DNA of 64,000 bases from IMG/VR virus record IMGVR_UViG_3300024346_008124, positions 15,098 through 79,097 of that record, one strand, 5' to 3'. Positions 3,413-52,784 of the stretch are shown piece by piece (the first letter of the stretch is position 1; every line of letters begins with the position of its first letter). The notes under the pieces were generated by a model. The model searched no databases. It was given only the letters and a program-made list of their open reading frames with translations, and had not been told where the DNA came from. The stretch comes from a virus. Made by a program: the position numbers and the translations under genes.

Positions 3413-3828
3413 TGAAAATTTATCTATCTACCAAACCGCCCTCAGACATGTCATTCAAACACTGCTCAAATCTAGCTGCGTTAGAGGGCATGGCTTTAGA
3501 TGGCGAAGTAACGAGTCTAACAATAGATTGTTTTCTTTCTTCGTTTTCTTTTCAGGAAGTCAAAGAAGCGGTGCAAGAAATACTAAAAAAATGTAGAATG
3601 AAGTGTGAGGTTAATATTATAGAAATGGATTCTAATGTAATATTTAGGCTTTACACAAGGGGAGAGATACAGCTAGACTATTTAAACAACTTGTTTTTTA
3701 ATAGTCCGAAAAAAAGCGTCCTTAATACAGACACTATACAGTCCTGCATTCCTGATAATTTTTCCATAGAAGAAAAGTCAATATCTAGCCAAGGATTTTC
3801 AAGCATTAAAATTAGGAGAGTAGTATGA
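3412..3828 (+). CDS. hypothetical protein (possible degenerate methyltransferase-like fragment)
   Basis: TAATG coupling to the previous gene and ATGA coupling to the next; no clear motif. Confidence 0.6.
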   Translation: MKIYLSTKPPSDMSFKHCSNLAALEGMALDGEVTSLTIDCFLSSFSFQEVKEAVQEILKKCRMKCEVNIIEMDSNVIFRLYTRGEIQLDYLNNLFFNSPKKSVLNTDTIQSCIPDNFSIEEKSISSQGFSSIKIRRVV

Positions 3829-9637: not shown

Positions 9638-9638
9638 T

Positions 9639-12165: not shown

Positions 12166-13322
12166 CAATAAAACTATGTTCTGACATAATAGACAAACAA
12201 GATATAAACAACTTGATATCTTGGCTAGAGACTATGCCGAGGCTGACAAAAGGCCAAAAAACGTTAGAGTTTGAACAGATGTTTTCTTCCTACGTTGGGT
12301 GTGAGCATTCTATTTTTTGCAACTCAGGGTCTTCTGCGAACCTACTCATCACTTCTGCTCTAATGCAAAGCGGCATGATGAAAAATGATAAAATTATAGT
12401 ACCTCAAGTATCTTGGTCTACAACCGTGTTTCCGGCTATGCAGCTAGGTCTGAAGCCGATAATGTGTGATTGTAACCTTTCAAACCTAGGTATTGATCTA
12501 GATCATTTTGAATGGCTGGTTAAAAACCATAAACCCGCCGCCGTTATATTGGTGCATGTCTTAGGGCTAGAATCAAATATAGAAAAGGTGACGCAAATAT
12601 GTGAGGATCATAATGTTATACTAGTGGAGGATACTTGCGAAAGCTTGGGTTCTTCTGTAGCCGGAAAGAAACTTGGAAATTTTGGGCTAGCTAGTTCTTT
12701 TTCTTTTTACTTTGGGCATCATATATCAACAATTGAAGGAGGTATGGTTTGCACAAATGATAAAGAGTTTGCAGATATTATTAAAATGATAAGAAGTCAT
12801 GGGTGGGATAGAGATTTAGATGAAGAGGCAAAACTTAAATACAAGAAACAGTACGGCGTTAAAGAGTTTGACTCTTTGTATAAGTTTTATTATCAGGGTT
12901 TTAATCTTAGGTCTACTGATTTGCAGGCGGTCATTGGTATAAATCAAATGTCTAAAATAGACAACATATCAAACGTAAGACAAAGAAACTATAATCATTA
13001 CCTAAAGTCTATAAAAAGTGAACTATGGAAACCTCACTCACGACAGGAGGTGGTTTCTAATATGGGATATCCATTAATTGTTGGAAATAGAGAGGATTTA
13101 TCTAGCGCTTTAGACGATAATGGTGTAGAATGTAGACCACTAGTCTCTGGAAGCATGGGCGCTCAACCAGCTTGGAAAAAAGAGTACGGAGAACTGACTA
13201 TGCAGAACGCATCTGTAGTAAATAACAATGGTATGTATGTCCCCAATCATCAAGACTTAACAATTCAAGATATTGACAAAGTTTGCAAAATAATTAACGA
13301 CACAGGAAATCCGCATGTCTGA
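12162..13322 (+). CDS. colD: DegT/DnrJ-family PLP enzyme, ColD-type GDP-4-keto-6-deoxymannose 3-dehydratase
   Basis: NSGSSANLL, VSWSTT, EDTCESLG, SFYFGHHISTIEGG (His in place of the catalytic Lys), RSHGWDR, GFNLRST, ECRPLVSG. Confidence 0.75.
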   Translation: MTIKLCSDIIDKQDINNLISWLETMPRLTKGQKTLEFEQMFSSYVGCEHSIFCNSGSSANLLITSALMQSGMMKNDKIIVPQVSWSTTVFPAMQLGLKPIMCDCNLSNLGIDLDHFEWLVKNHKPAAVILVHVLGLESNIEKVTQICEDHNVILVEDTCESLGSSVAGKKLGNFGLASSFSFYFGHHISTIEGGMVCTNDKEFADIIKMIRSHGWDRDLDEEAKLKYKKQYGVKEFDSLYKFYYQGFNLRSTDLQAVIGINQMSKIDNISNVRQRNYNHYLKSIKSELWKPHSRQEVVSNMGYPLIVGNREDLSSALDDNGVECRPLVSGSMGAQPAWKKEYGELTMQNASVVNNNGMYVPNHQDLTIQDIDKVCKIINDTGNPHV

Positions 13323-14133
13323 AATAATCAATCTAATACCAAACAATCCAGATGTACACGTTTATTCTAGAGCCGTAGAGTTATTGTCTGAAAAGCTGGA
13401 AGAAGACTACTCTTTCATAATAAACGTCTGGGATCACGAAATGCCAAAAGATACTAAGTATCCTAAGATTCTTGTATCGACCTCTGATGAGGCTCATAAG
13501 ATGCCTAGCCAAGCCTATGATGGCAGCTATGTGCATGTGTTTAAGCAATATCAACCCATGATAAACACAGACGACCCCCTTTCTATAATAACTTCTGACA
13601 AAGTTACCGCCATACCCTTGTGCGAGCTAGATGGTATAGAAGATAAACAAATACCAATCTTGGAAAGAGAATACGACTGGTCTTGGATGGGGCAATTTGA
13701 CCCCTACAGAAGAGTAGAATTTAGGAATTCTATAACACAACTAGAAAAAAACGAAAAGTTAAAAAACAAAGTTTTGTGGTATGAGGGATGGAACAATGGA
13801 GAATCTACAGAATCTTACTGTGACGTTTTAAATCAGACAAAGATTATGCCCGTTCCTCGCGGTTCAGGCAGTCTAGAGTCATTTAGATTTTTTGAAGCTG
13901 CTAGATGTGGCTGTATACCCGTTTGCACTCAGCAGCCTCATGTAGATTTTTATAACGTTGCTCCTTATTTTTCAATTTCTTCTTGGTCTCACTTTGGAGA
14001 ATTTGTAGAAAACATGAAACAAAGACAAAGCGAGATGGAATACCTGTCTGAACAGGTTAAAAACTGGCACAAATACTTCTGCTCCCCTCAAGGGCTTGCC
14101 GACTTTATGTACAAGAGGATTAAAAATGTATAA
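13315..14133 (+). CDS. exostosin/GT47-like glycosyltransferase
   Basis: TSDE, REYDWSWMGQ, TKIMPVPRG...ESFRFFEAARCGCIPV. Confidence 0.75.
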   Translation: MSEIINLIPNNPDVHVYSRAVELLSEKLEEDYSFIINVWDHEMPKDTKYPKILVSTSDEAHKMPSQAYDGSYVHVFKQYQPMINTDDPLSIITSDKVTAIPLCELDGIEDKQIPILEREYDWSWMGQFDPYRRVEFRNSITQLEKNEKLKNKVLWYEGWNNGESTESYCDVLNQTKIMPVPRGSGSLESFRFFEAARCGCIPVCTQQPHVDFYNVAPYFSISSWSHFGEFVENMKQRQSEMEYLSEQVKNWHKYFCSPQGLADFMYKRIKNV

Positions 14134-14806
14134 AACATATGTCATGCACTATAAGCCACTACGAGACAGAAAGGAATTTATACTAAAGCAACTGTCTTCA
14201 AAGGGTATAGAAAATTTTGAATTTATAACGGATTTTGATAAAGATGTTTTGACAGAAAAAATCATAGAAGATTACTACCTAGAAGATGAAGAAAAACACT
14301 TCAAAGAGTGCCAAGTCTCTATGAGACAAGGAGAAAAATACCAATTCCAAAAAATGAAGTACGCCAGCATATCCCTTTGTATAAAGCATGTTGAGGCTTT
14401 TGAAAAAACAAAACAGCAAGAAGAAGATTTCGCACTATTTCTAGAAGATGATTGTAGATTTCATCAAGATTCTACATCTTTAGAAGAAATAATATCAAAA
14501 GCGCCACAAGACTGGGATGCCATAGTAATAGGTGGCCCATTTAAACATGATATATGCCAATACAACTTCATAGTCGGAGATGACAATTCAGCCTACTTAA
14601 AAGCTAAACATCCCGCGACTAATACGACTAGTAGTATACTCTACAGAAAGTCTACAGCAGAAAAAATAATGCCGTATGTGAAACCCTTTTCACTACCTAT
14701 TGATTGGCAGCTTAACTTTGCTTTCTGGAAAGCTAAATTAAACGTGTATCACATTTATCCATATATATCCACACAGGGAGACTTTAAGAGTACCGCAAAT
14801 GATTAA
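14126..14806 (+). CDS. GT25-family glycosyltransferase
   Basis: YVMHY..L.DRK, SLCIKH, LFLEDD, LPIDW motifs; start moved to ATG 14126 behind GAGGA. Confidence 0.85.
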   Translation: MYKTYVMHYKPLRDRKEFILKQLSSKGIENFEFITDFDKDVLTEKIIEDYYLEDEEKHFKECQVSMRQGEKYQFQKMKYASISLCIKHVEAFEKTKQQEEDFALFLEDDCRFHQDSTSLEEIISKAPQDWDAIVIGGPFKHDICQYNFIVGDDNSAYLKAKHPATNTTSSILYRKSTAEKIMPYVKPFSLPIDWQLNFAFWKAKLNVYHIYPYISTQGDFKSTAND

Positions 14807-15632
14807 TGTTAAATATGTAGGAAGGCTTGGAAACAACATGTTTCAGTATTCTCTAGGTAGGATACTAGCAGAGTCTATGGGTTTGAGACTTAATTCACCG
14901 CCCATTCCAGAGTTCTCCAGAACTTTTGAACTAGTAAACCCAGAGCGAATAGAACCCTATGAGCCAATTGTTTTTAATGACCACGTTTTAAGAATAAATG
15001 ATGAGCCTGTATCTGTAGAAGATATAGTTAATCTGAAAGATAAAGCCGTATACCTCGATGGATGGTTTCAAAGATACGAATATTACAAGCCCTATAAACA
15101 AAAAATTAGAGAATGGCTGGACATAGAAGATATAGACGTAGGACAGACGGATAACGATGCGATTGTTCACTTACGTATGGGCGATTGTATAACGGGAGAC
15201 TTAGCAAAAGACCCATATGTGATGCCTCATGGGTACTTTAACAAAGCTCTAGAGATTATGGATTTTGATAATCTTTTCATATGCTCAGATCCAGAGACTT
15301 TAAATCATCCACTATTTAAAAAATACATGGAGAATTTTAAAGAATACTGTCCCACACTACTATGTGGAGATAAAATAGAAGATTTTAGAGCCATAAAATC
15401 GTTTGATAAAATAGTCATGTCTCAAAGTACATTTTCTTGGTGGGGTGCATTCTTATCAAACGCTTCTCAAATATTTGTTCCGGTTCCAGAGCCGGGACCG
15501 CACACCAACGAATGGAGCCTAGAGAGCAGAAACGTTGCCGTTTTTGTAGATGACGAAGATAGATACAGCTACTTAAAGCAGTATGGGACAGAGTGGAAAC
15601 TAGTAAACCTTAAAGATATACCGGAGACATAA
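14799..15632 (+). CDS. GT11 alpha-1,2-fucosyl/colitosyltransferase-like protein
   Basis: GRLGNNMFQY, LDGWFQ, VHLRMGD, ICSD, SQSTFSWWGAFL are GT11 motifs. Confidence 0.9.
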   Translation: MINVKYVGRLGNNMFQYSLGRILAESMGLRLNSPPIPEFSRTFELVNPERIEPYEPIVFNDHVLRINDEPVSVEDIVNLKDKAVYLDGWFQRYEYYKPYKQKIREWLDIEDIDVGQTDNDAIVHLRMGDCITGDLAKDPYVMPHGYFNKALEIMDFDNLFICSDPETLNHPLFKKYMENFKEYCPTLLCGDKIEDFRAIKSFDKIVMSQSTFSWWGAFLSNASQIFVPVPEPGPHTNEWSLESRNVAVFVDDEDRYSYLKQYGTEWKLVNLKDIPET

Positions 15633-15633
15633 A

Positions 15634-16209
15634 ATGGAAAACAATTTTTATAACAAAGAGTATTGGTACGATAATTCACAAGAGCATTCAGACGTAGATA
15701 ACTATGGAGAAAATTACTACGCTTACAAAATATATAAAAACTTAATACTAAAACTTAAAGACATACCAGATACAGGATATATTGTTCTACTAGGAACAAA
15801 CAGATGTGTATCGTTTAATTTACTATGTGACCACTTCGGAAAAGATAGGTGTATCGGTTTTGATATTCACAATCCCACAAATCACCCGCGCGTTAAAATT
15901 AAAGACTGCACAAAATTATCAGAACTAGACAATATACCCATAGCATTTTGCCACAACGACTTGGGAAGTTTTCCAAAAACTCCAAAATTAAAAATACATG
16001 GGCAAAATTGGGCTGCCGCAAATATAATTAATGGAGGATATTTTTTAGGAAGGAATAATTTAAATGCTGCTAAATTTAAATCAGAAGAGTTTATGAAAGA
16101 CTTAGGATTTGAAAACAAGCAATTTAAGGATATTGTAAATGATTACGATATGACAGACTTTGAAGAATCTTGCATAGAGGGACACATGATCTCAAGGAGA
16201 ACCGTATGA
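15634..16209 (+). CDS. hypothetical protein, possible SAM-dependent methyltransferase-like
   Basis: IVLLGT, CIGFDI, AFCHND, INGGYF pattern resembles a Rossmann methyltransferase; weak. Confidence 0.45.
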   Translation: MENNFYNKEYWYDNSQEHSDVDNYGENYYAYKIYKNLILKLKDIPDTGYIVLLGTNRCVSFNLLCDHFGKDRCIGFDIHNPTNHPRVKIKDCTKLSELDNIPIAFCHNDLGSFPKTPKLKIHGQNWAAANIINGGYFLGRNNLNAAKFKSEEFMKDLGFENKQFKDIVNDYDMTDFEESCIEGHMISRRTV

Positions 16210-16868
16210 GCATAATAAAAGACTACAATCTAGATAAATACAACTTCTGTGAAGAGGTAAAGAATATTTTTTATGTTGATGAATTAAAAAATCTACACAT
16301 AGAAAGAAGCGATTTATTACCTCAAGATAAATTAAACTTTGACAATGAGACAAAAACAGACTTTCATTCCACCTTTTACGGGGGTTTAAAGTCTAAAAAA
16401 GGAAAGGCTATAAAAGATATTTACAATAGCTTCATTTCCGAGATTGTTGCACCTATGTTTAATAGAAGTTTCGTGTATCAGGCTTTTCCAAGCTTTAGGG
16501 TCCACATACCCAACGACCAAGCTGTGCATAAATGGCACTATGATTCTGACGAAAACCACAACCACCCCGATTGGGAGATAAACTTTCAGCTAGCGCTTAC
16601 TAATATGTACGAAAGTAACGCTATGTGGATAGAATCGGTTCCGGGGCTTAGAGACTTTAAACCTTTGGAAATGAATCTTGGGCAATTCGCAATTTTTTAT
16701 GGCAATCAGTGCGCTCATGGGAATAAGGAGAATACAACTGGTAACACAAGGGTTAGTATGGATTTTAGGGTTATCCCATATGAAAAATATGATGAATCTA
16801 AAGCAAAGAATTCCGCTACCGCAAATACAAAATTTGTTATTGGAGAATATTATAGGCTGTATAAATAA
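16206..16868 (+). CDS. StrG-like 2OG-Fe(II) oxygenase
   Basis: YQAFPSFRVH.P, WHYD (HxD), EINF..ALT, HGN..N.TG.TRVSMDFR; start moved to ATG 16206 (ATGA overlap). Confidence 0.8.
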   Translation: MSIIKDYNLDKYNFCEEVKNIFYVDELKNLHIERSDLLPQDKLNFDNETKTDFHSTFYGGLKSKKGKAIKDIYNSFISEIVAPMFNRSFVYQAFPSFRVHIPNDQAVHKWHYDSDENHNHPDWEINFQLALTNMYESNAMWIESVPGLRDFKPLEMNLGQFAIFYGNQCAHGNKENTTGNTRVSMDFRVIPYEKYDESKAKNSATANTKFVIGEYYRLYK

Positions 16869-17518
16869 TGTACACTAAAACACAAGATGTAATAGAACTA
16901 CTAGAGAAGCAAGGTTACAGTATAAGTGACCCTTGGGATATCGTGGAAGCTTTTGAAGACAAGGTCGCAAAATACGCAGGCAGTAAGTATGCGGTAGCTA
17001 CAGACAGTTGTACCAATAGTATATTTCTATGCTTAAAGTATCTGCAAGCAACCGGCAAAGTGGAAGTCCCGAAGAAGACATATTTATCTGTACCTCAAAG
17101 TGTTATCCACGCAGGATGTGAGGTTGAATTTACTGATCTTGAGTGGTCTGGAGCCTATAGACTAAACCCATATCCAATTGTAGACAGCGCCACGAAGTTT
17201 ACTAAAGGTATGTATATTGAAGATTCGTATCAATGTCTGTCTTTTCACATTAGAAAAATACTACCCATTGCTAAAGGTGGTATGATATTGACAAACGACA
17301 AGAGTGCTGTAGAGTGGCTTAAACTAGCAGAGTACGAAGGAAGAGATAGGCGTGTCCCTCACGACGAAATGCCGCCCCCAGCCATGCTGGGATGGAATAT
17401 GTACATGCCCCCTGAGCAGGCCGCTAGGGGCATAGAACTGTTTGAACAAGCTAAAGACTTTAACGAAGACTCTGGCGGTTCTTGGAAATATAAAGACATA
17501 TCACACTATAAATACTAA
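16868..17518 (+). CDS. short DegT/DnrJ/EryC1/StrS aminotransferase-like protein (C-terminal domain absent)
   Basis: FE...A.Y.G.KYAVATDSCT, DSA, CLSFHIRKILPIAKGGMIL (Lys retained), GWNMYM; only 216 aa. Confidence 0.78.
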   Translation: MYTKTQDVIELLEKQGYSISDPWDIVEAFEDKVAKYAGSKYAVATDSCTNSIFLCLKYLQATGKVEVPKKTYLSVPQSVIHAGCEVEFTDLEWSGAYRLNPYPIVDSATKFTKGMYIEDSYQCLSFHIRKILPIAKGGMILTNDKSAVEWLKLAEYEGRDRRVPHDEMPPPAMLGWNMYMPPEQAARGIELFEQAKDFNEDSGGSWKYKDISHYKY

Positions 17519-17529
17519 TAGGAATTTTA

Positions 17530-18000
17530 ATGATAAATGTATCAGCTTTAATAGGAGACTTAGGACCATCACAAAAGTCTTTTTATCTAATAAAAGCCTT
17601 TAACGAGCTTTCTAGAAATCCAAACCTATCCTGTACGGCTTTTGTTTTAAAGATATCGCCGCCATATACAAAACCTCTTTTTTCATGCTCCAGCGTTTCG
17701 TTTCTTTCTAACTATAACGGTGTATGTTTAGCCACTAACCTAGAAGAAGCTCAAATTCTTCTTAAATCAAACAACAATTCTAAAAAATATCTTTACCTGT
17801 GGGATATGGAATGGATTAAAAGACCAATGAACTACTCTCAGGTCTGCGATATACTGCTAGATGATAGACTAAGTATTATATCAAGAAGCGACTCGCACTC
17901 CTGCATGATAGAAAACTACTGTAATAAACCTCCAATAGCCACCATACAAGATTGGAACCCGTCCCAAATTTTAGAAATACTGGAAAAAACCCATGCCTAA
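17530..18000 (+). CDS. hypothetical protein (possible GT-B N-terminal half)
   Basis: AGGA RBS; KKYLYLWDMEW and IISRS motifs; operon-coupled. Confidence 0.6.
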   Translation: MINVSALIGDLGPSQKSFYLIKAFNELSRNPNLSCTAFVLKISPPYTKPLFSCSSVSFLSNYNGVCLATNLEEAQILLKSNNNSKKYLYLWDMEWIKRPMNYSQVCDILLDDRLSIISRSDSHSCMIENYCNKPPIATIQDWNPSQILEILEKTHA

Positions 18001-18772
18001 TATAGATGAATCTTACGTATTAAAAAAGTATCAAGATAATAGTAGCACATACTCCATAGCAAAAGAACTGAACACATATCCAAAAAAGATAGAAAGGATA
18101 TTGAAAAAGAATGGAGTAACAATGAGAACCCGATCCGAGGCTCAGGCTAATGCTATAAAAACAGGACGAAGCAAACACCCAACAAAAGGAGAAAAGCGAT
18201 CAGAAGAAGACAAGAACAAGATTAGCAGGGGTAAGGAATTAAGCTGGAAAAATACTTCTGACGAAGATAGAGAGAAGTTTTCAAAGCAAGCAAAGGACAG
18301 ATGGGAAAAGATTCCGGCAGATAAGAAAAGAGAAATGATGGAGAAGGCTGGTCGCGCCCTTAGAATTGCGGCTATAGAAGGCTCCAAGGCCGAGAAGTTC
18401 TTAGAAAGAAAGCTTAACGAGATGGGCTATGATGTAGTGCTTCACAAGAAAGATCTTATTGAGGGCAATTTTGAAATTGACTTGTTTTTGCCTCAGTTAA
18501 ACACTATAATAGAGATAGATGGGCCACAACACTTTCTCCCAGTGTTTGGAGAAAAGAAGCTACAGGAAGTTATTAAGTTTGATTCTATCAAGAATGGACT
18601 TCTGGTTTCTAAGGGGTTTTGTGTTGTGAGAGTTAAATATCTTTGTAAGAATATGTCTCGCGCCGTAGAGAGAAGATTGTGGGATTTGGTATCGGAACAG
18701 GTTGGAAAACTACAGGAAAAGTTTCCTCCTAAGAATAAACGTTTCATTGAATTGGAGATAGGACATGAGTGA
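17993..18772 (+). CDS. putative free-standing homing endonuclease (N-terminal HTH, NUMOD3-like helical repeats, Vsr/DUF559 nuclease domain)
   Basis: STYSIAKELNT..KIERILKK HTH; HPTKGEKRSEEDKNKIS repeats; SKAEK...FEIDLFLP...IIEIDGPQH...GFCVVRV. Confidence 0.8.
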   Translation: MPNIDESYVLKKYQDNSSTYSIAKELNTYPKKIERILKKNGVTMRTRSEAQANAIKTGRSKHPTKGEKRSEEDKNKISRGKELSWKNTSDEDREKFSKQAKDRWEKIPADKKREMMEKAGRALRIAAIEGSKAEKFLERKLNEMGYDVVLHKKDLIEGNFEIDLFLPQLNTIIEIDGPQHFLPVFGEKKLQEVIKFDSIKNGLLVSKGFCVVRVKYLCKNMSRAVERRLWDLVSEQVGKLQEKFPPKNKRFIELEIGHE

Positions 18773-19538
18773 TAATTTAAGTACAGATCTATTTGACAAA
18801 GAAGCACTTGAGAAAGAAAAGGACGCAGAAGCAACAGGCCCGGATATGACCATGCCCGCATATGGATGTGACGAGTGGCACGACTATGTCATGAGTAAGT
18901 TTCACAAGTCGGAGATGTACAATGGAAACCCTCTCACCACCGGCCTGCGCAGAGTCGCAGAGGAACTACTGGGAGACATACTGGTGAGTAGACCAGTTCA
19001 AGTAATAGCGTCTGACGATCCCAACGGTCCCGGTAGGGCTACTGTTGTGTTTGAGGTCGTTATTGACTGGATGGGTTCAGGGCAGCTTAGAACTTATGGA
19101 GATGCGGCTGACTGCTGGCATGGTAACTCAGATGACCTATTTTGCGCTCATCCCGCTGCCACGGCTAGCACCAAGGCAGAGGGAAGATGTTTGAGAAAGG
19201 CTCTTAAAGTACGCTGTGTGGCGGCAGAAGAGATCCCAAGAAACAAAGACGTTGTAGCTATCGTGCGGCAGTCTATCGCATCTAAGCCAACTACAGGAGA
19301 GTGGAACGAAGAAGATCCTATTAGCGTTCCTCAAGTTAATTTTATTGATGGGAAGTGTAAACAATTAGACATCGACGTTGTTGAATTTATCAACTCTGGA
19401 GAAGGAAGTTACAAGAACATAGGAGAAGTAAGTAAGAAAACAGCATCTAAGATGCTAGCGATATTGAACGACTATCAGAACAAAGCTAAACCTACCCCTG
19501 CTAAAATTGTAGGGTATAACTCAAACTGGAGAGAATGA
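18765..19538 (+). CDS. Rad52/Sak-like single-strand annealing protein
   Basis: GLRRVAE, ATVVFEV, TYGDAAD, ATASTKAEGRCLRKAL..AEE; C-terminal ISVPQVNFI...SKKTASKML motif typical of phage Sak proteins. Confidence 0.65.
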   Translation: MSDNLSTDLFDKEALEKEKDAEATGPDMTMPAYGCDEWHDYVMSKFHKSEMYNGNPLTTGLRRVAEELLGDILVSRPVQVIASDDPNGPGRATVVFEVVIDWMGSGQLRTYGDAADCWHGNSDDLFCAHPAATASTKAEGRCLRKALKVRCVAAEEIPRNKDVVAIVRQSIASKPTTGEWNEEDPISVPQVNFIDGKCKQLDIDVVEFINSGEGSYKNIGEVSKKTASKMLAILNDYQNKAKPTPAKIVGYNSNWRE

Positions 19539-19867
19539 TGAAGTTAAATTACAAGTTAGGAAACCTTAGCGTAGAATTTGAATGCGATACCCCTAAAGAG
19601 GTGTTTAATCAACTTTCTATTTTCCAAGAGGTTTTTGGAGAAACTAAATGCGGCAAATGCGGATCTGAAAATCTTAGATTTGTAGTTAGAGTCGTAGACG
19701 ATAACCCGTATTACGAAATTAGGTGCATGGACTGCGGCGCAAAACTAGCGTTTGGGGCCAATAAGAAAGGTGGCGGCCTGTTTCCAAGGAGAAAAGACGC
19801 TGAAGGAAACTGGCTTCCAGACAAAGGTTGGACTAAATGGAACGCTAAAACCAAGCAGGTAGAATAA
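19535..19867 (+). CDS. zinc-ribbon protein
   Basis: CGKCGS...YYEIRCMDCGA (two CxxC); ATGA coupling. Confidence 0.75.
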   Translation: MMKLNYKLGNLSVEFECDTPKEVFNQLSIFQEVFGETKCGKCGSENLRFVVRVVDDNPYYEIRCMDCGAKLAFGANKKGGGLFPRRKDAEGNWLPDKGWTKWNAKTKQVE

Positions 19868-43531: not shown

Positions 43532-46500
43532 TTAAGGTCTAGCCTCTGGGTTATCTAAAGCTTTCTTTACTTCATCTGCTACTAGTCCACCAATACTATC
43601 GGTTATTTGTTGAGCTATTGCACCACCATCTACGCCGGGAAGATTAATTTGACCATCAACTGTGACAGTATGCTGCATTTCAAAAAATCCAAATCTTTCA
43701 TTTAAACTTTCTAAGTTGGTAGAAAGCTTTGTTATGGATGCTGTAATTTTGTCAAAGGTTTGAGAAATTTGTGTTAAATCTATTCCCCCTGTGGCACTTC
43801 CTCCATCTTGAAGATACTGAGTACCTCCAACCATACCCCCTTTATTAAATCCTTTAACCTGACCGCGATTTAACGCCTTCATAGTGCCTACGCCGTGCTG
43901 TCTTACGGCTCCCGCACTCATTACAAACTCGCCCGGAGTTAACATAGCAGGAACTGTATCGCCGCCAGAAATACCTCCACCAGCAGCCCTAAACCTTGCC
44001 CCACCTCTGAATTGTTGCTGTTGTTGGTACTTCATGAATTTTTGATACTGCTGGAACTGCTGGAACTGCTGCATGGCTTGTGGAGAACCCATCATATTGG
44101 GGTTGTTTTTAAATGCCTGCGTTATACCTCTTCCCGTTCCAGCGCCCGCGCCGCCCGATGGCGTAAAGTTTTGAGACTTTGCGAATCTTTGCGCTGCTGC
44201 TGGGCCATTTGTTCTTAAAATTCTTTCGTATCTTGCTTGATTAGCTTGTTGGTCTGTTGTGCCGGATAATCCAGATTTTACTCCAGAAAGCCTTGCTGTT
44301 TTTCTACTGGCCGCCGTACTTGTATTTCTTTTTGCATCTTTTCTGGCTTTAAAAGCGTCTCTGTTTGTTTTTAATCTAGCGTTTTTAGCTGCCGCAACAG
44401 CATCGTCTAATGCGGAAGCGCCGCCTAAAGCGTCCGTATATGGATTAATATCGTCAGAACCATAAATAGTGGTAGCAGCCGTGGCAGCCGTGCTTTGAAA
44501 AGGGTCTTTAGGTTTTGGAGCGGCTTGCGCGTAAGTCGTTCCATATTTTGTCATCCGCTCGCGTTCTCTATACTGCTCGTAAGTTTCGTTTTTATTGATA
44601 AGACCAGCGTTTTTAGCAGCCCTAAAGTGCTTAGGAGAAAGAGCGCCAGTTCCTTCGTCCTTGGGCAAGGCTCCTAAAGCGTCTGTGCTTTGTCTAGTAG
44701 CCATTGGAGAAACTCTAAACTGATTAGAAACATTAGGCATATTAGCTGCCGCTGAAAATCTATCAAAAACCGGATCGCTTGGTTGGTTTAGTATTTTCTT
44801 ACGGTTTGGATCTATGGCGCCGGAACCCAATTTGCTATAGGTTTCAAATTCGCTACTAGAATCCGGCCTAGATACACCACCACGAAATTCGTCTCCAGCC
44901 TTTGCAGCTTTCACGAAAGACCCTCCATCTTTCAGAATTTGTTGGTTGTAAGCATCTGCCGCTTCCCGTCCTTCATTACCTAGAATTTCAAAGTATTTAA
45001 TTTGCTCTTTAGTCAAACCCTCACGATCTGCTTCTGATACCTTACGCCTACTTCCATCACTAAGATAACTAACCCCACTATTTATAGCAGCTAAAGTATC
45101 AGTACCTATCGCATCAACAGCCGACTTTCTAATAACAAACTCGCCCGGAGTCAACATGGCCGGAACTGTATCTGTTCCTTTTGGTTGGAATATGCTGCCG
45201 CCATTAGCTCTGTAAATCAAACCGCCTCTAGCTCTACCTTGAGGCTCAACAAGGGCTGGAGCAACATTTGCAGGATCAAGCCCCTGTTGGGCAGCCTGCA
45301 TCACTCCGCTGAGTTTATTAATTTCAAACGCTAAAAGCTCATTAGAATCAATAAGTTGTTGTTCTTTTGTCGTGGCAGTGGCGAGTTGTTCTGCTATTCT
45401 AGGATCAAGACCCATTTGAATAGCATCTCTAAACACCAATTCTTGTTTTATTTCTTTACCAGTAAATCCGCCCAAAAGCTCAACATCTCCAAGCTTGTCA
45501 AGGAAGCCTACAGTAGCAGACCTTTGCTCTTCTGTTTGGTTTTGTAGTGTACCGCTAGCAAAAGCTTTTCTTACACCAGTAGCCGCTTCCACAAGCGCTT
45601 TTCTTGTATCTTGACCACCAACAACAAACTCTTCTACAACAGCAGTAACAGCTTCTCTTTTTGCTCTTTCTTTTTCTATAGCCTCTGCGTTGCGCTCCAT
45701 TTCGGCAAACATATCATCTACTCTGCCGCTTTGGTCTGCAAGTCTTTCTAGTTCTTTATTTACAGCAGCAAGTTGTTTCAAAGTTTCAGACTGTTCTTTG
45801 GCGAGACCGGTTCTTAGTTTATCGTCTGTAGTTCCTCGTATTTTTGTTCCTTGCTGTTGAGATAAAGCGGATAGCCTTTGTCTTTCTCCTGTCAAGCCAC
45901 CAATATCACCAGCAGCCACCCCTACGCCAGCAGCAGTCAAATTGCCCTGAGCTTGTTGAACTCTTCTTGCTTCTTTAGCACTTCTATCTTGAACAGCAGC
46001 GTCACGACCAAGAGATTGATTAATAATATTTCTAGCTCTTATCTCTCTGTCAATAGCCTGTTCTTGTTGTTGGAATACAGCGTTTCTAAATTTAATTTCT
46101 TCTCCATACTGTCTTTTTACTTCATTTAAGTAAGACGTATATGCATTAAGATATTCTTGGTTACCTTTTGTTATTTCATCCGTTATTTTTTTGTTGGCTT
46201 CTGCTGATGCTTGTATTGGTTTTAATATATTATCTAATTCTTGTTGAGTTATTCCGCCCGCAGAAGCTTTTGCTATACCCCTTATTATATCCTCTTGCAC
46301 CTTTTCTGGTAGGAAGCTTAGATCGGGCAGCGCGCTTCCAAACTGATCTTCCATAATATCCATAAGGCTATCAATATCTGTGCCAGCGGCGCGAGACACA
46401 TCTACACTAGACCTGTTTAAAAGCCCAGTATCGGGAGCTTCAAAAACCTTTAAAGCTTCCGCAACTTGAATTTGTGTATCTATAGCCTTTTGCGCCTGAT

Positions 46501-49500
46501 CGCGCTCACCGGGATCTGAAATTCCAGAAATTGCCCCCTGAGCATCAGCGCTAAACTGGTTAAGATCAGTGGTCGCAGTAACAGCCTGCAATTTAGTAGC
46601 AGTCAATTTACTACCCTTTCCTTGAGCTATACCTGCTTGATCTTCAATACCTAGCCTGTCATCTATGAAGCCTTTCGTTCTGTCTGAAAAAGCCTGTAAA
46701 GCTTCGGCAGCTTCAAATAATCGCGTTCTTAAAGCTTCGGCAGCTTGAGCGGCAGCAATGTCTGCATCTCTTCTTTTTATAGCACTATTAACAGCCTCTT
46801 TTTCGCCATTTTCAATATTTCCTATTAATTTATTTCTTCCCTCTATTTCTCTATCTATAGCTTCTTGTAATTGATCCCGATCTTTCTGATCAGTAGATTC
46901 GTTCAGCTGCGATTTTAACTTAGCTTCTCTTAATATAGACTCATTTCGTATAGCAGATGTAGAAGCCTCTATCGCCTTTAAATAATCTTGATTAACCTTG
47001 AGGCCAGAACTACTAAGATCATCAAAGCTAGTTACACTAGTGTCACTAACATCTATGTTTTGCCGAGCTTCACCGAGCGTTTTAATAGACTCTGCTGTAT
47101 TTTTTGCCGCTGATTCCAGTGCTAAATTTAAATTTTTTAGCGAGGTTTGCAAAGCTAGTCTAAGCGTAGGCGGAATCAGTTCTAAATCTGAATCGTTTAG
47201 ATTCATAAGACGTTCTATATCTAGAATGGGATTTCCTTTACTATCCGTACTCCTATCTCCGGAAGCCTTGAGAAAAGATGGATCTATGTCCCTATTGAGA
47301 AGATTACCCTGAGCTTCCTTTGACGCCTTTAAGATATTGCTAAATAAATCATCAAACTGTTCTTGACCGCCGGGACTTCTGTTTGTAAAATCTTTTTGAG
47401 CTTGCAGTCTTTGAGAAACCCTTTCTTCTGGAGTTAAAGATTCCGCTAAGTCAATATCATTAAGACTACTTTCAAAACTCTTTAAAGACATAACCAAACT
47501 TTGTTGCGCTAAAAGTTGATAATTTAAAGCTTCGGTATTTTTTACTACCTGTGCTTCAAACGCCGCTGCAACTTCTGGATCATTTTGATAATCTGCAACA
47601 GCCTGTGCTACAAAATATGCATCTAAAGCAGGAGCAAAGGTTTTAAGCATGAAACTGCTACCGTCTTTGGCCGCCTGCTTTTCTCCCCGTGTTGCACCAG
47701 TCATATCCATAGCGGACGAAGCAAAACTACCGGGAAGCATACTAGCAAACGGAAGCGCCATTCCTGACATAAATTGTCTAGATTCTTCTTCTTTTCGTTC
47801 CTGATTAGCAATATTTTTAAGTATAGCAGATAAGCCTTCTCCAGTTTCTTGAAATGTTTCTATAAATTTTTGAGCAGCTTTTCCAAAATTATCTGCTTCT
47901 GCCTTCGCTCTAGCTGAAAAATAATACATAGCAATAGCAAAAGTGGCAGCTATGGCAACCACAGCCAAAAGACCAGCCGCAAGAGCGGCAGCCGCAATAG
48001 CAAGCGGACCCATCGCGGCAGTGACGAGAGAACTAGCACCAGCCTCTGCTGTATCTGCACCAGCGCTTAAAATAGAAGCCCCCGATTCAGTAATCGCGCT
48101 ACCTATTTGACTTACAAGAGCCGCCCCCATAAACACAAAACTAGCACCCACATCAACTAAAGTTCCAGTAATACCACCCACAACAGCGACCATAGTGGTG
48201 GTTTGAGTGATAGCCGTTTTTGTAGCCTCGTTCAGCCCAGACATTTGAGAAGTAACGCTGCCTACCATAGCGCCTAGAAAGAGCAAGCTTTGCGCTGATC
48301 CGGCAGCACTCTGAACAGCAGAAGCTCCTCTACTCACCCTTTGAGCGCCCCCTTGTAATGCTCCACCCACCCTTTGGCCGCGAGTCATAGCTGAACGATT
48401 TATCGCTGCTTGTTCTTTATCTCTAGCGGCATTGGATTCTCTTATTTCTTGAGCTTCTTTATCTAGCTGAATAGCGACATCTTTTATGTCCACATCCATT
48501 TTTTTCAGATCGCCATCTGTTCTTTTGACTGTTGTATCGGCTTTTTTAAACGTAGCTTCAAGCTGTTTAGCAATCTGATTTAATTTGGCTAATATTTTTT
48601 CAAAAACGCCCATTTGCTTTGTGGCAGCCTGTAGGCTTTTTGAGTCGATCATACCAGATCCGGCCAAGGCTTGTGTTGGAGAATATCTAGCCCCACCCGC
48701 GAGAGGTCCGTTGCCATAAAAATCTCTACCGGTAGTAACAACACCACCGGCGGCATAACCTTTTACGCCTTGCTCATTCATTCTTTTTAGATTGCCGTAG
48801 CCAATACTTTTTGATGCGCTTTTATTAAATACAAACTCGCCGGGAGTTAACATGGCAGGAACAGTATCAGAACCAGAGATACCGCCACCTTTATTCAAAC
48901 CTGCCATTTTTCTAACTTGTTGATTTGCACCCCTTGTGGCTACAGTACTGGACCCCGGACCCGATACTATGGAACGACTGTCCGCAGCGGTCATGCCAGA
49001 TATCTCTCTCTTTATAGCTCCAAGGATAGGGTCCAGAGCCTTATTAGCTTCTGCTATGGATTTTTTAGTTTCAAGATTTTTAACTTTCTTAATAAAGGTT
49101 TTTACATTGTCAGAAGTGAAAGAAGACTTAGCGTCAGTAGGTCTTGTTGCGACATCTTCAAGGTCAAAGTAGGAAGCTAACTTGCCACCAAGACCAGTAA
49201 GATAGTCCCAGTCAGAATTAGAGTCTTTGCCCGCCATAGGATCTTTATCTCCTACGCTTGTTAAAATCGCTTCAAATATATTACCTGTAACATTATCAAT
49301 ATTTGCACTTTTTAATATTTTTGCCACGTCACCAGAGCTAGCTCCAGACATTCTATTTGTTAAAGTTGAGCCTATATTATTAGCGCCTTTTAAAACGGTG
49401 TCTTCTACACCCCCCAGTATAATATCTTCTAAGCCTTCTGCTTTACTTTTTTCTAAAGATCCAGCCCTCAAAACAAAACCGGCCTGTGCAGTTTGACTCT

Positions 49501-51394
49501 TGCCCTCAATGCTTTTTAATTGCGCTTCCAGCTTTGCTTTGATTTTACCAGCCCCACCTTTTACCTTAGCACCAAAAGACAAAACTTGTTTAAAATCGGG
49601 ATCATTTCTAATCCCGGCGCCAATAGCTTTTTTATCAACAAATCCCTGTAATTTCTGTTTTCTAGCGATAGGTCTTAAAAACGCGCCCCCATATGTACCA
49701 AGTTCTGAATCTAAAGCTTTTCCAGCAACATCATCTATCAATTGTATACTGCCGGGAACTGCTTCGCCCCCCAGTTTTTTATTAGAAAGCTGAGGTCTAC
49801 CTTCTTTAAACTTCTCTCTCAGCGCTGTGCCACCAACATTAAATCTATTGTTGTTCATTTGAGCAAGTGTATCGGTGCCTAAACTCTTTACGCTACTTTT
49901 CTTTATAACGAACTCTCCCGGAGTTAGCATGGCTGGAACAGTATCACGATTGCCCTGACCGGGAACCATTCCACCTCTAGCAAATCTACTAAATCCACGA
50001 CCACCACCACCACCACCTCTGGCGATACCCGCCATACTAGCTATTCCCGGAGCTAAACTTCTTCCAAGCTTCAATGCGAACATACTTGTCAACAACGGTA
50101 AAAGAGGTTCTACAGCTTCCGCCACTTTAATCATAGCACTAGCAATTTCCAGCGCACCCTTTGCCACACTTTTAAACGTACTACTGTCTGAAAACTGTCT
50201 TATTAAAGCATTAAACTCTTCTTTAACCTTCTGTATCTGTACCCCCAGCCCGGCCTGAGCCTTTAACGCATCTCTTGCCGAAGAACCGCCCGCTCCTTGC
50301 GCTACAGCAAGAGCCTTTTGCGCGGTAGCAAACTGTTGAATCAAAGGAATAACTTTACCTATCTGCCTAAATCCACCAAGATCTTCGACTATTTGACTGA
50401 ACACAGCGCTTCTAGGATCTAGTGTGTTAAGACCTTGAGAAAGCCTTTTAACAGCCTCAAAAGCTCCAACAAAATTACCCTGAGCATCCTGCAACTCAAT
50501 ACCAAGCTCTCTTAACTGGTTTATGGTTTCTGGTCTTTGTATCCTTGTAAAAATTGTACGAAGACCCGTAGCGATAGTTTCGGCACTTTCTCTGGTGGTA
50601 GAACGAACACTAGTGAACAGTGCAATCAATTCATTTACTTCTCCGCCTGCGGCAGAAAATACACCACCAACCCTACGTATAACAGTAATGAGGTCGTCAG
50701 ACTCAACCGCAAACCTTTTAGAGACAGCATTAATAGCATCTAAGGATTGCTCAAGAAACTTAATGTCTCCACCAGCCTTTCGAGCCTCATTTCCAAACTG
50801 TCTAAGGAGCGCAATAGCGCCCTCAGTAGTATCTTGAATACTGGTAAACGTAGCACCTAAACTTGTTTTTGCTAGAATGTCAAGCGCTTTACGAGTTTTT
50901 TCTGCCGAAAATCCAGCCTGAGACAAAGTCCGAGAAACATTTAACAAATCAGAAGAAGATACGCCTAAGCTAGTAGAAAGTTTTGTAACCTCCCTTGTTA
51001 GCCCTTGTAACTGCTGGACACTTTTGCCTGTAACTTGAGATATTTTTATAAGCTCTCTCTCAAACTCAATAGCGGCTTTTGTGGCGTTTTTAAAACCCGT
51101 AACAAAAGAAAGAAGCGTACCAGTTGCCAACGTGATAACACTAAATCTTCTGGTAGCTTCTTGAAGGCTTCTGTTAAGAGTATTTATATCCTTAGAAGCA
51201 GACTTAGAATTTCTACTAATATTTTGAAGTTGTTTATTAGTTTGAGCCATAGATCTAGGGTCGGCTTTTACTTTTATATTTACAGTATTTAACCCGCTAC
51301 CCTTTAGCTGTCTCTGTATATCAGAAACGACCCTTCCAACATTCTTTGGTGACTGCAAGTTGATCTGTGCAGTTAAATTAAATTGCTGTGCCAT
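43532..51394 (-). CDS. tail tape measure protein (TP901-type core), 2620 aa
   Basis: AIEFERELIKISQVTG...LSQAGFS...AINAVSKRFAVESDDL...ESAETIATGLRTIF core; Ala-rich coiled coils, hydrophobic segments, DTVPAMLTPGEFV motifs; downstream of tube and chaperones. Confidence 0.93.
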   Translation of the reverse strand: MAQQFNLTAQINLQSPKNVGRVVSDIQRQLKGSGLNTVNIKVKADPRSMAQTNKQLQNISRNSKSASKDINTLNRSLQEATRRFSVITLATGTLLSFVTGFKNATKAAIEFERELIKISQVTGKSVQQLQGLTREVTKLSTSLGVSSSDLLNVSRTLSQAGFSAEKTRKALDILAKTSLGATFTSIQDTTEGAIALLRQFGNEARKAGGDIKFLEQSLDAINAVSKRFAVESDDLITVIRRVGGVFSAAGGEVNELIALFTSVRSTTRESAETIATGLRTIFTRIQRPETINQLRELGIELQDAQGNFVGAFEAVKRLSQGLNTLDPRSAVFSQIVEDLGGFRQIGKVIPLIQQFATAQKALAVAQGAGGSSARDALKAQAGLGVQIQKVKEEFNALIRQFSDSSTFKSVAKGALEIASAMIKVAEAVEPLLPLLTSMFALKLGRSLAPGIASMAGIARGGGGGGRGFSRFARGGMVPGQGNRDTVPAMLTPGEFVIKKSSVKSLGTDTLAQMNNNRFNVGGTALREKFKEGRPQLSNKKLGGEAVPGSIQLIDDVAGKALDSELGTYGGAFLRPIARKQKLQGFVDKKAIGAGIRNDPDFKQVLSFGAKVKGGAGKIKAKLEAQLKSIEGKSQTAQAGFVLRAGSLEKSKAEGLEDIILGGVEDTVLKGANNIGSTLTNRMSGASSGDVAKILKSANIDNVTGNIFEAILTSVGDKDPMAGKDSNSDWDYLTGLGGKLASYFDLEDVATRPTDAKSSFTSDNVKTFIKKVKNLETKKSIAEANKALDPILGAIKREISGMTAADSRSIVSGPGSSTVATRGANQQVRKMAGLNKGGGISGSDTVPAMLTPGEFVFNKSASKSIGYGNLKRMNEQGVKGYAAGGVVTTGRDFYGNGPLAGGARYSPTQALAGSGMIDSKSLQAATKQMGVFEKILAKLNQIAKQLEATFKKADTTVKRTDGDLKKMDVDIKDVAIQLDKEAQEIRESNAARDKEQAAINRSAMTRGQRVGGALQGGAQRVSRGASAVQSAAGSAQSLLFLGAMVGSVTSQMSGLNEATKTAITQTTTMVAVVGGITGTLVDVGASFVFMGAALVSQIGSAITESGASILSAGADTAEAGASSLVTAAMGPLAIAAAALAAGLLAVVAIAATFAIAMYYFSARAKAEADNFGKAAQKFIETFQETGEGLSAILKNIANQERKEEESRQFMSGMALPFASMLPGSFASSAMDMTGATRGEKQAAKDGSSFMLKTFAPALDAYFVAQAVADYQNDPEVAAAFEAQVVKNTEALNYQLLAQQSLVMSLKSFESSLNDIDLAESLTPEERVSQRLQAQKDFTNRSPGGQEQFDDLFSNILKASKEAQGNLLNRDIDPSFLKASGDRSTDSKGNPILDIERLMNLNDSDLELIPPTLRLALQTSLKNLNLALESAAKNTAESIKTLGEARQNIDVSDTSVTSFDDLSSSGLKVNQDYLKAIEASTSAIRNESILREAKLKSQLNESTDQKDRDQLQEAIDREIEGRNKLIGNIENGEKEAVNSAIKRRDADIAAAQAAEALRTRLFEAAEALQAFSDRTKGFIDDRLGIEDQAGIAQGKGSKLTATKLQAVTATTDLNQFSADAQGAISGISDPGERDQAQKAIDTQIQVAEALKVFEAPDTGLLNRSSVDVSRAAGTDIDSLMDIMEDQFGSALPDLSFLPEKVQEDIIRGIAKASAGGITQQELDNILKPIQASAEANKKITDEITKGNQEYLNAYTSYLNEVKRQYGEEIKFRNAVFQQQEQAIDREIRARNIINQSLGRDAAVQDRSAKEARRVQQAQGNLTAAGVGVAAGDIGGLTGERQRLSALSQQQGTKIRGTTDDKLRTGLAKEQSETLKQLAAVNKELERLADQSGRVDDMFAEMERNAEAIEKERAKREAVTAVVEEFVVGGQDTRKALVEAATGVRKAFASGTLQNQTEEQRSATVGFLDKLGDVELLGGFTGKEIKQELVFRDAIQMGLDPRIAEQLATATTKEQQLIDSNELLAFEINKLSGVMQAAQQGLDPANVAPALVEPQGRARGGLIYRANGGSIFQPKGTDTVPAMLTPGEFVIRKSAVDAIGTDTLAAINSGVSYLSDGSRRKVSEADREGLTKEQIKYFEILGNEGREAADAYNQQILKDGGSFVKAAKAGDEFRGGVSRPDSSSEFETYSKLGSGAIDPNRKKILNQPSDPVFDRFSAAANMPNVSNQFRVSPMATRQSTDALGALPKDEGTGALSPKHFRAAKNAGLINKNETYEQYRERERMTKYGTTYAQAAPKPKDPFQSTAATAATTIYGSDDINPYTDALGGASALDDAVAAAKNARLKTNRDAFKARKDAKRNTSTAASRKTARLSGVKSGLSGTTDQQANQARYERILRTNGPAAAQRFAKSQNFTPSGGAGAGTGRGITQAFKNNPNMMGSPQAMQQFQQFQQYQKFMKYQQQQQFRGGARFRAAGGGISGGDTVPAMLTPGEFVMSAGAVRQHGVGTMKALNRGQVKGFNKGGMVGGTQYLQDGGSATGGIDLTQISQTFDKITASITKLSTNLESLNERFGFFEMQHTVTVDGQINLPGVDGGAIAQQITDSIGGLVADEVKKALDNPEARP
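43922..43960 (-). repeat. DTVPAMLTPGEFV module, copy 4
   Basis: Identical 13-aa peptide, near-identical DNA with synonymous changes. Confidence 0.95.
45134..45172 (-). repeat. DTVPAMLTPGEFV module, copy 3
   Basis: Identical 13-aa peptide. Confidence 0.95.
48830..48868 (-). repeat. DTVPAMLTPGEFV module, copy 2
   Basis: Identical 13-aa peptide. Confidence 0.95.
49907..49945 (-). repeat. DTVPAMLTPGEFV module, copy 1
   Basis: Identical 13-aa peptide. Confidence 0.95.
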
Positions 51395-51472: not shown

Positions 51473-52417
51473 TTATGTCGATTTTGCATCGGTTTTTTTA
51501 GCAGTCGTTTTACGTCTGGTCTTGGGTTTTGTTTTTTCCTCGATCTTCGCCCCGATAGGATTATCATCCTCATCCAAAAATGGCTGCCTTTCCTTCAGCG
51601 ATAACCTAACCCAGTCTTCTTCGCCGTTACTTTTTATAACCTTGACAACCTCTTCACCGTCTCTGTTTACAAAATAAAGCTCGTCAGGATTTTTATCGTC
51701 CTTACCCTTTTCTGTACGGTAGGCTATAAATCTTCCTTCGTCGTTAATGAGTCGTCCTTCAACATCTGTAAGATGACCCTCATCATTAATTAAACGAAGT
51801 TCTTCATCTACAAAATTAAACTCTTGTAAAAATTTATTTTCTTCAAGATTTTTATCGTAGTCTGGATCAATATTATATAGCATATTAGCTAGTTCGCCAG
51901 CGGCCTCAACCGCCCAAGGCTGATCCGCCTGAGCCTCATAAGCTTGGATGTCAGCAAACTTTCTATTGTTACCAGAACTATCAAAAACGCACCTAGACAC
52001 CAAGGCGACAAACCTTGAATTGTCAGCCTGCCCTTCGGCAGAATTTGTATCCATAGCATTTTTTTCTGATATTAAATTTCTAAATTCCAAACGCTTTTGT
52101 TTAAGCTTTAAAGCAATCTCCTTAGCCGCAGAGAGTTTAATACCACCACCCTTTAGACCATCTTCCATACCTCCTATTTCTGAAACAAGTCTATCGTACT
52201 GCTCTTCTTTTTTATCATCCCAAATCCCCTGCTCTTTCATATAGTCATTTAATTTCTGTCTAAGCAGTGCGCCCGAATCGAGAGCCTCTCTAAAAGACGT
52301 ATTATAAGATATCTGAGACTTATTGTAATCCTGAGCGGTAGGCTTTTTAACAACAACTACCACCTCATTACCTTCGTGATCTTCGCTAGTCAGAGTTCTT
52401 TGTGTATCATTTCCCAT
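51473..52417 (-). CDS. putative tail assembly chaperone
   Basis: Immediately upstream of the TMP; start moved to ATG 52417 (MGNDTQ) behind AAGGAG; VVKKPTAQD motif; C-terminal L(I/V)(N/D)xxG hairpin repeats. Confidence 0.6.
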   Translation of the reverse strand: MGNDTQRTLTSEDHEGNEVVVVVKKPTAQDYNKSQISYNTSFREALDSGALLRQKLNDYMKEQGIWDDKKEEQYDRLVSEIGGMEDGLKGGGIKLSAAKEIALKLKQKRLEFRNLISEKNAMDTNSAEGQADNSRFVALVSRCVFDSSGNNRKFADIQAYEAQADQPWAVEAAGELANMLYNIDPDYDKNLEENKFLQEFNFVDEELRLINDEGHLTDVEGRLINDEGRFIAYRTEKGKDDKNPDELYFVNRDGEEVVKVIKSNGEEDWVRLSLKERQPFLDEDDNPIGAKIEEKTKPKTRRKTTAKKTDAKST

Positions 52418-52784
52418 CTTCTTCTCCTTTAGATTTTGCCATTGGCAGGTTGATAAAGTACTTCTTTTTACTGATTTCATAATTCACAAATTCAGATTCA
52501 AGGCTTCTTATTTGAGTATTTCCGCGATCAAGAATTTTAGCACGGACATCTTCAAATATTGCTTTGATATGCTTTTGTTCTGGTGTAAGTTGTTCTTCCG
52601 GTATTTCAAACCCCCACAGAAAACCGAAATGCTCTTCTACGGTAGAAAGCGCCCCTATCATGGTTGTTTGAACTTTCTTTTTGGAGGCTTTAAAAAGAGC
52701 ATCCTTAGAGACCTCTTTGTATCGGTCCTCTCTTGATTTTTTATAATCAATAGAATCCTTTAGAAACTTATTGTAGTCTTCCAT
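52407..52784 (-). CDS. hypothetical protein (tail region)
   Basis: Coupled to both neighbours; helical. Confidence 0.65.
   Translation of the reverse strand: MEDYNKFLKDSIDYKKSREDRYKEVSKDALFKASKKKVQTTMIGALSTVEEHFGFLWGFEIPEEQLTPEQKHIKAIFEDVRAKILDRGNTQIRSLESEFVNYEISKKKYFINLPMAKSKGEEDGK

Follow-up and report, generated by a model that had tools for sequence, protein, structure and literature searches.

What does a peptide module do when it recurs four times within a single tape measure protein (TMP)? The question is raised by gene P0001, which lies in the window analysed here, a stretch of 64,000 nucleotides (nt) from the virus record IMGVR_UViG_3300024346_008124 of IMG/VR (positions 15,098 to 79,097 of that record). 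The original prediction, made from the letters of the window, had seen a TMP divided by four identical modules and had proposed that it could be an injected polyprotein carrying exchangeable effector cargos. The reading preferred here, to which we give a probability of roughly 60%, is that the TMP is a mosaic in which four copies of a joint of the lambda type connect five segments; the descriptive part of this explanation is very probably correct. Coordinates are window positions unless they are marked as amino acid residues of the TMP (aa) or as contig bases, and those of the TMP features are collected in Table 1.

The assignment of P0001 was based on family PF10145 (PhageMin_Tail, TP901 type), which matched aa 135-335 with 92.6 bits against a gathering cutoff of 33.2, and on the PHROG tape-measure families, which matched the protein down to an E value of 8e-32. 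TMPs are the class of proteins whose length sets the length of the tail. The gene order fits that of a tail module, with small overlapping open reading frames (ORFs) upstream and four large ORFs downstream, all of these neighbours being without informative family matches. The nearest sequences were marine, consisting of a TARA fragment and marine single-cell viruses. Judged by sequence, the virus is an uncultured marine siphophage, with a contig of at least 79 kb, and the product is its tape measure protein.

The 13-mer DTVPAMLTPGEFV was found at aa 484, 843, 2075 and 2479. The four cores of identical protein sequence that had been predicted were thereby all confirmed at their predicted positions, far beyond chance, and the claim that they had diverged synonymously in DNA proved right as well: the four 39-nt cores showed 3-7 pairwise differences, every one of them synonymous. 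Between any two of the 200-nt regions holding the modules, the longest exact DNA word in common was 8-17 nt. As identical DNA tracts do not exceed 17 nt, the gene should be protected from deletion between its own repeats, and synonymous divergence of the cores would be what limits such deletion. A joint profile was built from 141 module instances and run against all six frames of the 79,097-nt contig, in which the four copies scored 73-88 bits and the next best match less than 3 bits. Therefore, the contig contains exactly four joints. Each of them spans about 65 aa and consists of an aromatic-x-x-Gly-Gly arm, a few residues, the DTVPAMLTPGEFV core, a short helix that ends in L..(M/I)N, and a second x-x-Gly-Gly arm.

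The identity of the four cores might have been a peculiarity of this protein, but DTVPAMLTPGEFV turned out to be the consensus of the family, with 486 of 876 instances identical to it. All cores are identical in only 10 of the 170 proteins with at least three joints, so that P0001 stands at the conserved extreme, and across the family the core is conserved better than any other part of the TMP. Recent gene conversion or concerted evolution of the cores was ruled out by the combination of a family-consensus core and diverged DNA. Since the DNA has diverged and the core equals the consensus, the identity of the cores is attributed to family-wide purifying selection, and this pattern of substitution shows every joint copy to be under strong purifying selection.

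The division of the TMP into five parts that had been drawn from the window holds: PF10145 lies in the N-terminal segment s0, a folded domain in s1, hydrophobic stretches in the long body s2, low-complexity sequence in slot 3 and a C-terminus of 98 aa (s4) after the last joint. Compared with relatives, s0 shows 60-91% identity, whereas s2 has colinear homology at 28-40% and is mosaic internally. By hydropathy, the membrane-type stretches of s2 correspond to aa 1069-1097 (48104-48190) and aa 1120-1161 (47912-48037). Slot 3 as a whole (s3) covers aa 2116-2456, of which the first part is a hypervariable cassette and the second is conserved. Among 22 relatives with four joints, s0 has an almost constant length of 462 +/- 4 aa, the coefficient of variation (CV) is 0.22 for s1 and 0.14 for s2, and slot 3 ranges from 191 to 779 aa with a CV of 0.41.

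Through slot 3, five close relatives (P0154 to P0158) were found, in which breakpoints were mapped at the protein level; the resulting statistics ignore shared ancestry. P0154 is 99.2% identical to P0001 over aa 1043-2114 and 97.2% over aa 2335-2620, and between the two regions an unrelated sequence of 302 aa replaces aa 2115-2334, identity stopping right after the '...LAAINSG' that closes joint 3. In P0155 to P0158 the identity of the cassette is 12-35%. Both versions of the cassette are of low complexity, basic or Pro-rich, and without domains. In each of the five close relatives, the cassette has its left breakpoint at the C-terminal edge of joint 3. Other joints show similar changes: P0155 has s1 at 82% and a replacement of the stretch right after joint 2 (aa ~903-979), and in P0156 and P0157 identity drops from 90% in s0 to 22-26% in s1 and rises again within joint 2. 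A change-point scan of six relatives detected 24 sharp changes of identity, 13 of them no more than 20 aa from a joint edge. When distinct breakpoint positions were counted, 5 of 11 were as close as this, mostly to C-terminal edges (518, ~840, 903, ~2110 and 2528); zones within 20 aa of joint edges make up 12% of the protein. These protein alignments show that, in close relatives, a stretch next to a joint, mostly just past its C-terminal edge, has been replaced by unrelated or very divergent sequence. The relatives are mosaic, and the invariant helical tape without any swapping, which would have spoken against the original prediction, was not what was found. In IMG/VR, no relative above 69% was detected.

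The joint is not restricted to this lineage, and proteins with several copies of it are common. A profile search against 1.84 billion representatives gave 19,498 clusters with the joint at E<=1e-3 and 971 at E<=1e-30, and the best 150 of these 971 clusters were proteins of 2100-7900 aa with 3-11 joints each. The number of copies was correlated with TMP length both in this best 150 set (r 0.82) and in 58 complete ORFs of IMG/VR (r 0.92), where ORFs with one copy had a median length of 632 aa and those with four copies one of 3228 aa. Across thousands of phages, joint number as read from the profile matches is shown to rise with TMP length. A single copy was present in 26 of the 58 complete ORFs, and also in gpH of phage lambda, in agreement with the earlier statement that the motif usually occurs once. 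In the best 150 set, the median position of the first joint, which comes after the PF10145 core, is aa 513; in complete IMG/VR ORFs that have at least three joints, ~70-370 aa (median 119-133) separate the end of the last one from the C-terminus. Neighbouring joints lie at very irregular distances of 50 to 2200 aa. Among cultured phages, the joint occurs mainly in mycobacteriophages (339 records), and further in Gordonia and Streptomyces phages, cyanophages and Pelagibacter phages, whereas the multi-joint giants belong essentially to uncultured phages. No paper describing a TMP architecture with repeated joints was found (judged from titles and abstracts for the pairing with 'polyprotein'), nor any paper pairing tape measure protein with PGEFV.

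The joint was also observed in cyanobacterial phages with genomes of 190-229 kb, at 7677-7817 in S-SM2, 7747-7893 in P-TIM68 and 164262-164393 in S-SCSM1, in proteins annotated as 'transmembrane protein', hypothetical or 'lysozyme/endolysin'. These three phages are T4-like myoviruses. Its presence in their proteins implies that the joint is not confined to the rulers of siphophages.

The increase of copy number with length, as if units had been added stepwise, would also be expected if the joints were passive remnants of internal duplication or of TMP gene fusion, with no function of their own. This explanation is hardly credible, as all four cores have one and the same protein sequence although synonymous change is saturated, the conservation of the core exceeds that of all other TMP parts, and giant homologues have non-paralogous units between their joints. 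An origin of those giants by recent tandem duplications was likewise rejected, their units of ~1000-1250 aa being without self-similarity.

The same element occurs in gpH of lambda, in which it occupies residues 732-784 with the arm FATGG, the core PAGIVHRGEFV, a helix and the arm YATGG. The match of the joint profile to residues 732-784 had an E value of 1.8e-3 with 4 sequences and 8e-6 with 141 sequences, and a pairwise comparison of joint 4 with gpH 729-785 gave 39% identity over 61 aa (E 3e-5). In gpH as in P0001, the joint comes after a hydrophobic, Gly-rich stretch and before a short C-terminal piece. However, gpH has one joint in 853 aa and P0001 four in 2620 aa, a folded domain and a variable cassette lie between joints only in the latter, and the cut of gpH is documented, whereas one in P0001 would be putative. 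During maturation, gpH is converted into gpH* (about residues 1-710) and gpHC by a cut in the Gly-rich stretch upstream of the joint, the exact cut site and the protease being unknown (PMC12617516). With a cut near residue 710, the joint begins about 20-40 residues downstream of it. How, by what and why the lambda TMP is cut has been an open question since the 1970s and is explicitly stated as such (PMC12617516). In the lambda structure (PDB 8IYK), gpH is resolved only at residues 818-849, bound to gpI (PMC12617516). The TMP of mycobacteriophage Douge, gp16, has two joints, at 963-1028 and 1411-1461 of its 1699 aa (profile E 1.2e-12), and differs from P0001 in having two copies with a divergent core, DSMLARVSNGEFI; its structure (PDB 8ZDO) resolves gp16 only at residues 1658-1699 (PMC13033339).

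By analogy with lambda, the joint of P0001 would serve as an element of maturation or as a hinge, folding only with the help of a partner. The last joint and the C-terminal 98 aa would be the counterpart of gpHC, staying at the tail tip, an equivalence of s4 to the tip-bound end of gpHC that is given by position only. The internal joints would then string separately evolving parts on one ruler, namely the core, an enzyme-like s1, a membrane-spanning body and a variable linker. Several observations weigh against this reading. About half of the breakpoints lie away from joints (aa ~979, 1285-1548 and 2344-2380), and therefore the joints may be merely conserved islands beside variable sequence instead of active sites of recombination. 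Their proposed role as recombination anchors thus agrees with the breaks found at both edges of joint 2 and at the ends of joints 1, 3 and 4, but does not extend to the breaks elsewhere. In addition, BLAST detected no similarity between s4 and gpHC beyond the joint, and the joint region falls outside the resolved residues in both the lambda and the Douge structures (PMC13033339, PMC12617516).

When a stretch composed of joint 1, s1 and joint 2 was modelled with AlphaFold2 (AF2) from 28 sequences, both joints had a predicted local distance difference test score (pLDDT) below 50 and s1 was modelled with confidence. The models show that the joint does not fold by itself as a domain, and it resembles a peptide whose folding depends on a partner. 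The idea that paired joints fold together to loop out s1 was left without support, both joints being at pLDDT <50. A prediction of a joint homotrimer (3 copies, alignment of 141 rows) scored 0.01, which is not evidence either way.

Disorder of the isolated joint, as for a peptide folding on a partner, is also what would be expected of a purely structural, uncut element, that is, a flexible, non-helical hinge or docking peptide that sits on a conserved surface in the tail (tube lumen, chaperone or TMP chains) and keeps a long ruler in register. The mosaic edges would then reflect its conservation. In favour of this explanation, which is possible but less likely than not, are the scaling of copy number with length, the many breakpoints located away from joints, and the Douge tube, which is filled by continuous TMP density with no cleavage reported (PMC13033339). 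However, tube and chaperone sequences show no conservation between lambda-like, mycobacterial, cyanobacterial and marine phages, while the 13-aa core hardly varies, and joints spaced as irregularly as these fit poorly with keeping a ruler in register.

The near-invariance of the core in phages of very different hosts suggests a universal ligand. Once the TMP has been ejected, the joint would in that case attach to something that all hosts share, for instance peptidoglycan, and so anchor the TMP conduit or ratchet it through the wall. To the eye, the spacing G-[DE]-x-[VL] ... L...N is reminiscent of LysM, and peptidoglycan-directed domains occur in some inter-joint slots. Nevertheless, binding to the envelope is very unlikely: hhalign gave the joint a probability of 1.3% against LysM (with a thin LysM profile of two sequences), a single joint of 141 had a weak LysM-type Pfam hit (E 0.16) and none was recurrent, and AF2 does not fold the joint as a domain.

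The segment between joints 1 and 2 was analysed separately. Modelled alone with AF2, s1 reached a pLDDT of 80.8 and a predicted template modelling score of 0.74, with a folded stretch at aa 548-808 (48971-49753, minus strand). In 28 sequences G704, E708 and D730 are invariant and K756 nearly invariant, and D754 is nearly invariant in a subset of 10 sequences. The model places E in helix H162-177, D at a bridge and DAK in strand 216-219, which is the residue pattern of PD-(D/E)xK enzymes, E...D...(D/E)xK on helix, strand and strand. The G..FE / D / (D/E)xK pattern is kept in slot-1 segments that BLAST cannot align. The motif looks like a putative active site of restriction-endonuclease type, as a prediction only. 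Structure searches with Foldseek gave no match at E<=0.001 against PDB (with the joint1-s1-joint2 model only) or BFVD; VIA-align returned helical proteins only (best Z 5.6-6.5); and no sequence match was detected in Pfam, in a PDB sequence profile search or in ESM Atlas. On the basis of these searches, s1 was rejected as a recognisable nuclease, and the model may represent a new nuclease-like fold. A search for stand-alone homologues found only two TMP fragments. The s1 profile matched 35 of 209 proteins at E<=1e-3, always in slot 1 and never in another slot, and by eye its motif was recognised in six more segments of slot 1, these being every further case inspected. Therefore, the s1-type domain is a lineage-wide component and not a swappable cargo.

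These results bear on the full polyprotein explanation, according to which each joint is a putative cleavage site and the TMP is cut into about five pieces after assembly or on ejection, with s1 and the cassette released as effectors ahead of the DNA. The single joint of lambda lies ~20-40 residues downstream of its only TMP cut, made by an unknown protease (PMC12617516); Gly-Gly arms flank every joint on both sides; the E / D / (D/E)xK pattern of s1 is kept across very divergent relatives, as an active site would be; and a few relatives have SLT, NlpC/P60 or LysM domains between joints. On the other side, family scans detected no peptidase family in the TMP or its four large neighbours, a novel peptidase being possible, the exchangeable cassette is of low complexity and not enzyme-like, and the fold of s1 matches no nuclease. 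Moreover, 68 short inter-joint segments from viral contigs yielded seven Pfam families, in one segment each, including LysM, SLT, NlpC/P60, HRDC, SAP and glycine zipper, and most of the 68 had no Pfam match; in two giants with 7-8 joints Pfam finds PF10145 only. We consider the full polyprotein unlikely. The modules are functional delimiters of separately evolving segments, and sequence next to them has been exchanged, in the form of the slot 3 cassette and of stretches beside other joints, but the proposal that this sequence represents effectors is not supported, s1 being lineage-wide and the cassette of low complexity with no domain.

A clear case of a domain between joints was observed in viral contig L061, where the sequence at 9077-9988 (plus strand) encodes two clear LysM domains between the third and fourth joints of the TMP (Pfam E 3.7e-26).

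A more specific proposal is that the upstream Gly arm of the joint is cut under the direction of the joint itself, perhaps by autocatalysis, which would make the joint the determinant of tape-measure maturation. Lambda gpH would then represent the case with a single joint, and the giant TMPs of marine phages would be true polyproteins, from which the conserved, enzyme-like s1 and basic peptides under rapid exchange would reach the host before the DNA does. We regard this extension of the lambda analogy as doubtful. Cleavage at the internal joints as such is conceivable, with the chances nonetheless against it. The original prediction is partly supported, but in its strong form, as an injected polyprotein of effector cargos, it is not backed by domain content, and cleavage would be assumed by analogy with lambda gpH only.

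Rulers that carry other functions are found in several phages. Mycobacteriophage TM4 and its relatives have TMPs with embedded cell-wall hydrolase motifs, whereas a Pfam scan of P0001 revealed no recognisable hydrolase. In phage T5, pb2 is cut into pb2* and pb2C (cited in PMC12617516). TM4-type TMPs and T5 pb2 resemble P0001 in that the ruler carries non-ruler domains and can be processed, but their descriptions include no repeated delimiter, and T5 pb2 gave no match to the joint profile in the PDB search. The idea of an injected polyprotein is shared with the polyvalent proteins (Iyer et al. 2017, PMC5512222), large virion-delivered proteins that string together separately acting domains, possibly released by proteolysis. 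However, their hallmarks, embedded peptidases and multiple enzyme domains, were not found in P0001 or in the scanned relatives, and in place of several effector domains P0001 has only PF10145 and one domain of unmatched fold. The paper on polyvalent proteins contains 0 mentions of tape measure proteins (PMC5512222).

Table 1. Segments and joints of the tape measure protein encoded by P0001.
Feature	Residues (aa)	Window position	Strand	Description
TMP gene P0001		43532..51394	-	Single ORF, 2620 aa
Segment s0, N-terminal core	1-461	50012..51394	-	PF10145 at 50390-50992
Joint 1	462-524	49823..50011	-	Core 49907-49945; a hydrophobic, Gly-rich stretch lies before it, as also in lambda gpH
Segment s1	525-823	48926..49822	-	Folded domain; conserved G704, E708, D730, D754-A-K756
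Joint 2	824-887	48734..48925	-	Core 48830-48868
Segment s2, long body	888-2051	45242..48733	-	Two transmembrane-like stretches
Joint 3	2052-2115	45050..45241	-	Core 45134-45172
Slot 3, hypervariable cassette	2116-2334	44393..45049	-	Low-complexity, without domain
Slot 3, conserved tail	2335-2456	44027..44392	-	Basic, Gln-rich; 52-93% identity in close relatives
Joint 4	2457-2522	43829..44026	-	Core 43922-43960
Segment s4, C-terminal 98 aa	2523-2620	43535..43828	-	Conserved in 21 relatives

The genes around the TMP were also inspected. Directly upstream of it, two ORFs of 125 and 335 aa (51473-52784, minus strand) overlap by 74 nt in different frames, neither with a family match. The overlap is located where tail assembly chaperones with a programmed frameshift are expected, and its offset is +1. 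The frameshift of tail assembly chaperones is usually -1. Downstream of the TMP, four very large ORFs (21344-43520, minus strand) encode proteins of 3293, 537, 1419 and 2140 aa with almost no family hits; the last of these has biotin-lipoyl / HlyD_3-like matches at aa 1333-1470.

This tail structural module on the minus strand, with its very large tail proteins, follows an island of glycan-biosynthesis genes of ~20 kb, which lies at window positions 1-19867 (plus strand), with contig bases 1-15097 upstream, and comprises ~26 tightly packed plus-strand ORFs. Ten of its window ORFs were scanned and nine had a Pfam match, including GT4, GT10, GT11, NAD epimerase and DegT aminotransferase; a GT47-like ORF lies just upstream of the window. 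The contig upstream of the window encodes PhoH, a RecA-like protein, DnaB, primase, a dNMP kinase, a PD-(D/E)xK nuclease and a split Pol III alpha. As the island is placed between phage replication genes and the structural module, it seems to be phage-carried. The Pol III alpha is divided into a part with PHP and NTPase (contig bases 10723-12294) and a part with finger, HhH and OB (contig bases 13166-14734), with an ORF of 230 aa (contig bases 12511-13203) between the two halves.

With respect to the family as a whole, a near-invariant peptide located beside the lambda cut, and repeated up to 11 times (best 150 clusters) in giant rulers, which occur in thousands of uncultured phages, provides a concrete element to mutate. 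To this the window adds a near-identical relative with a clean replacement of the cassette after joint 3, and a conserved slot-1 domain of unmatched fold whose motif resembles an active site. On the reading preferred here, very long tape measures would be assembled from separately evolving pieces with preferred points of exchange, and such piecewise TMPs would bear on the diversification of tail length, of envelope crossing and of any delivered activities.

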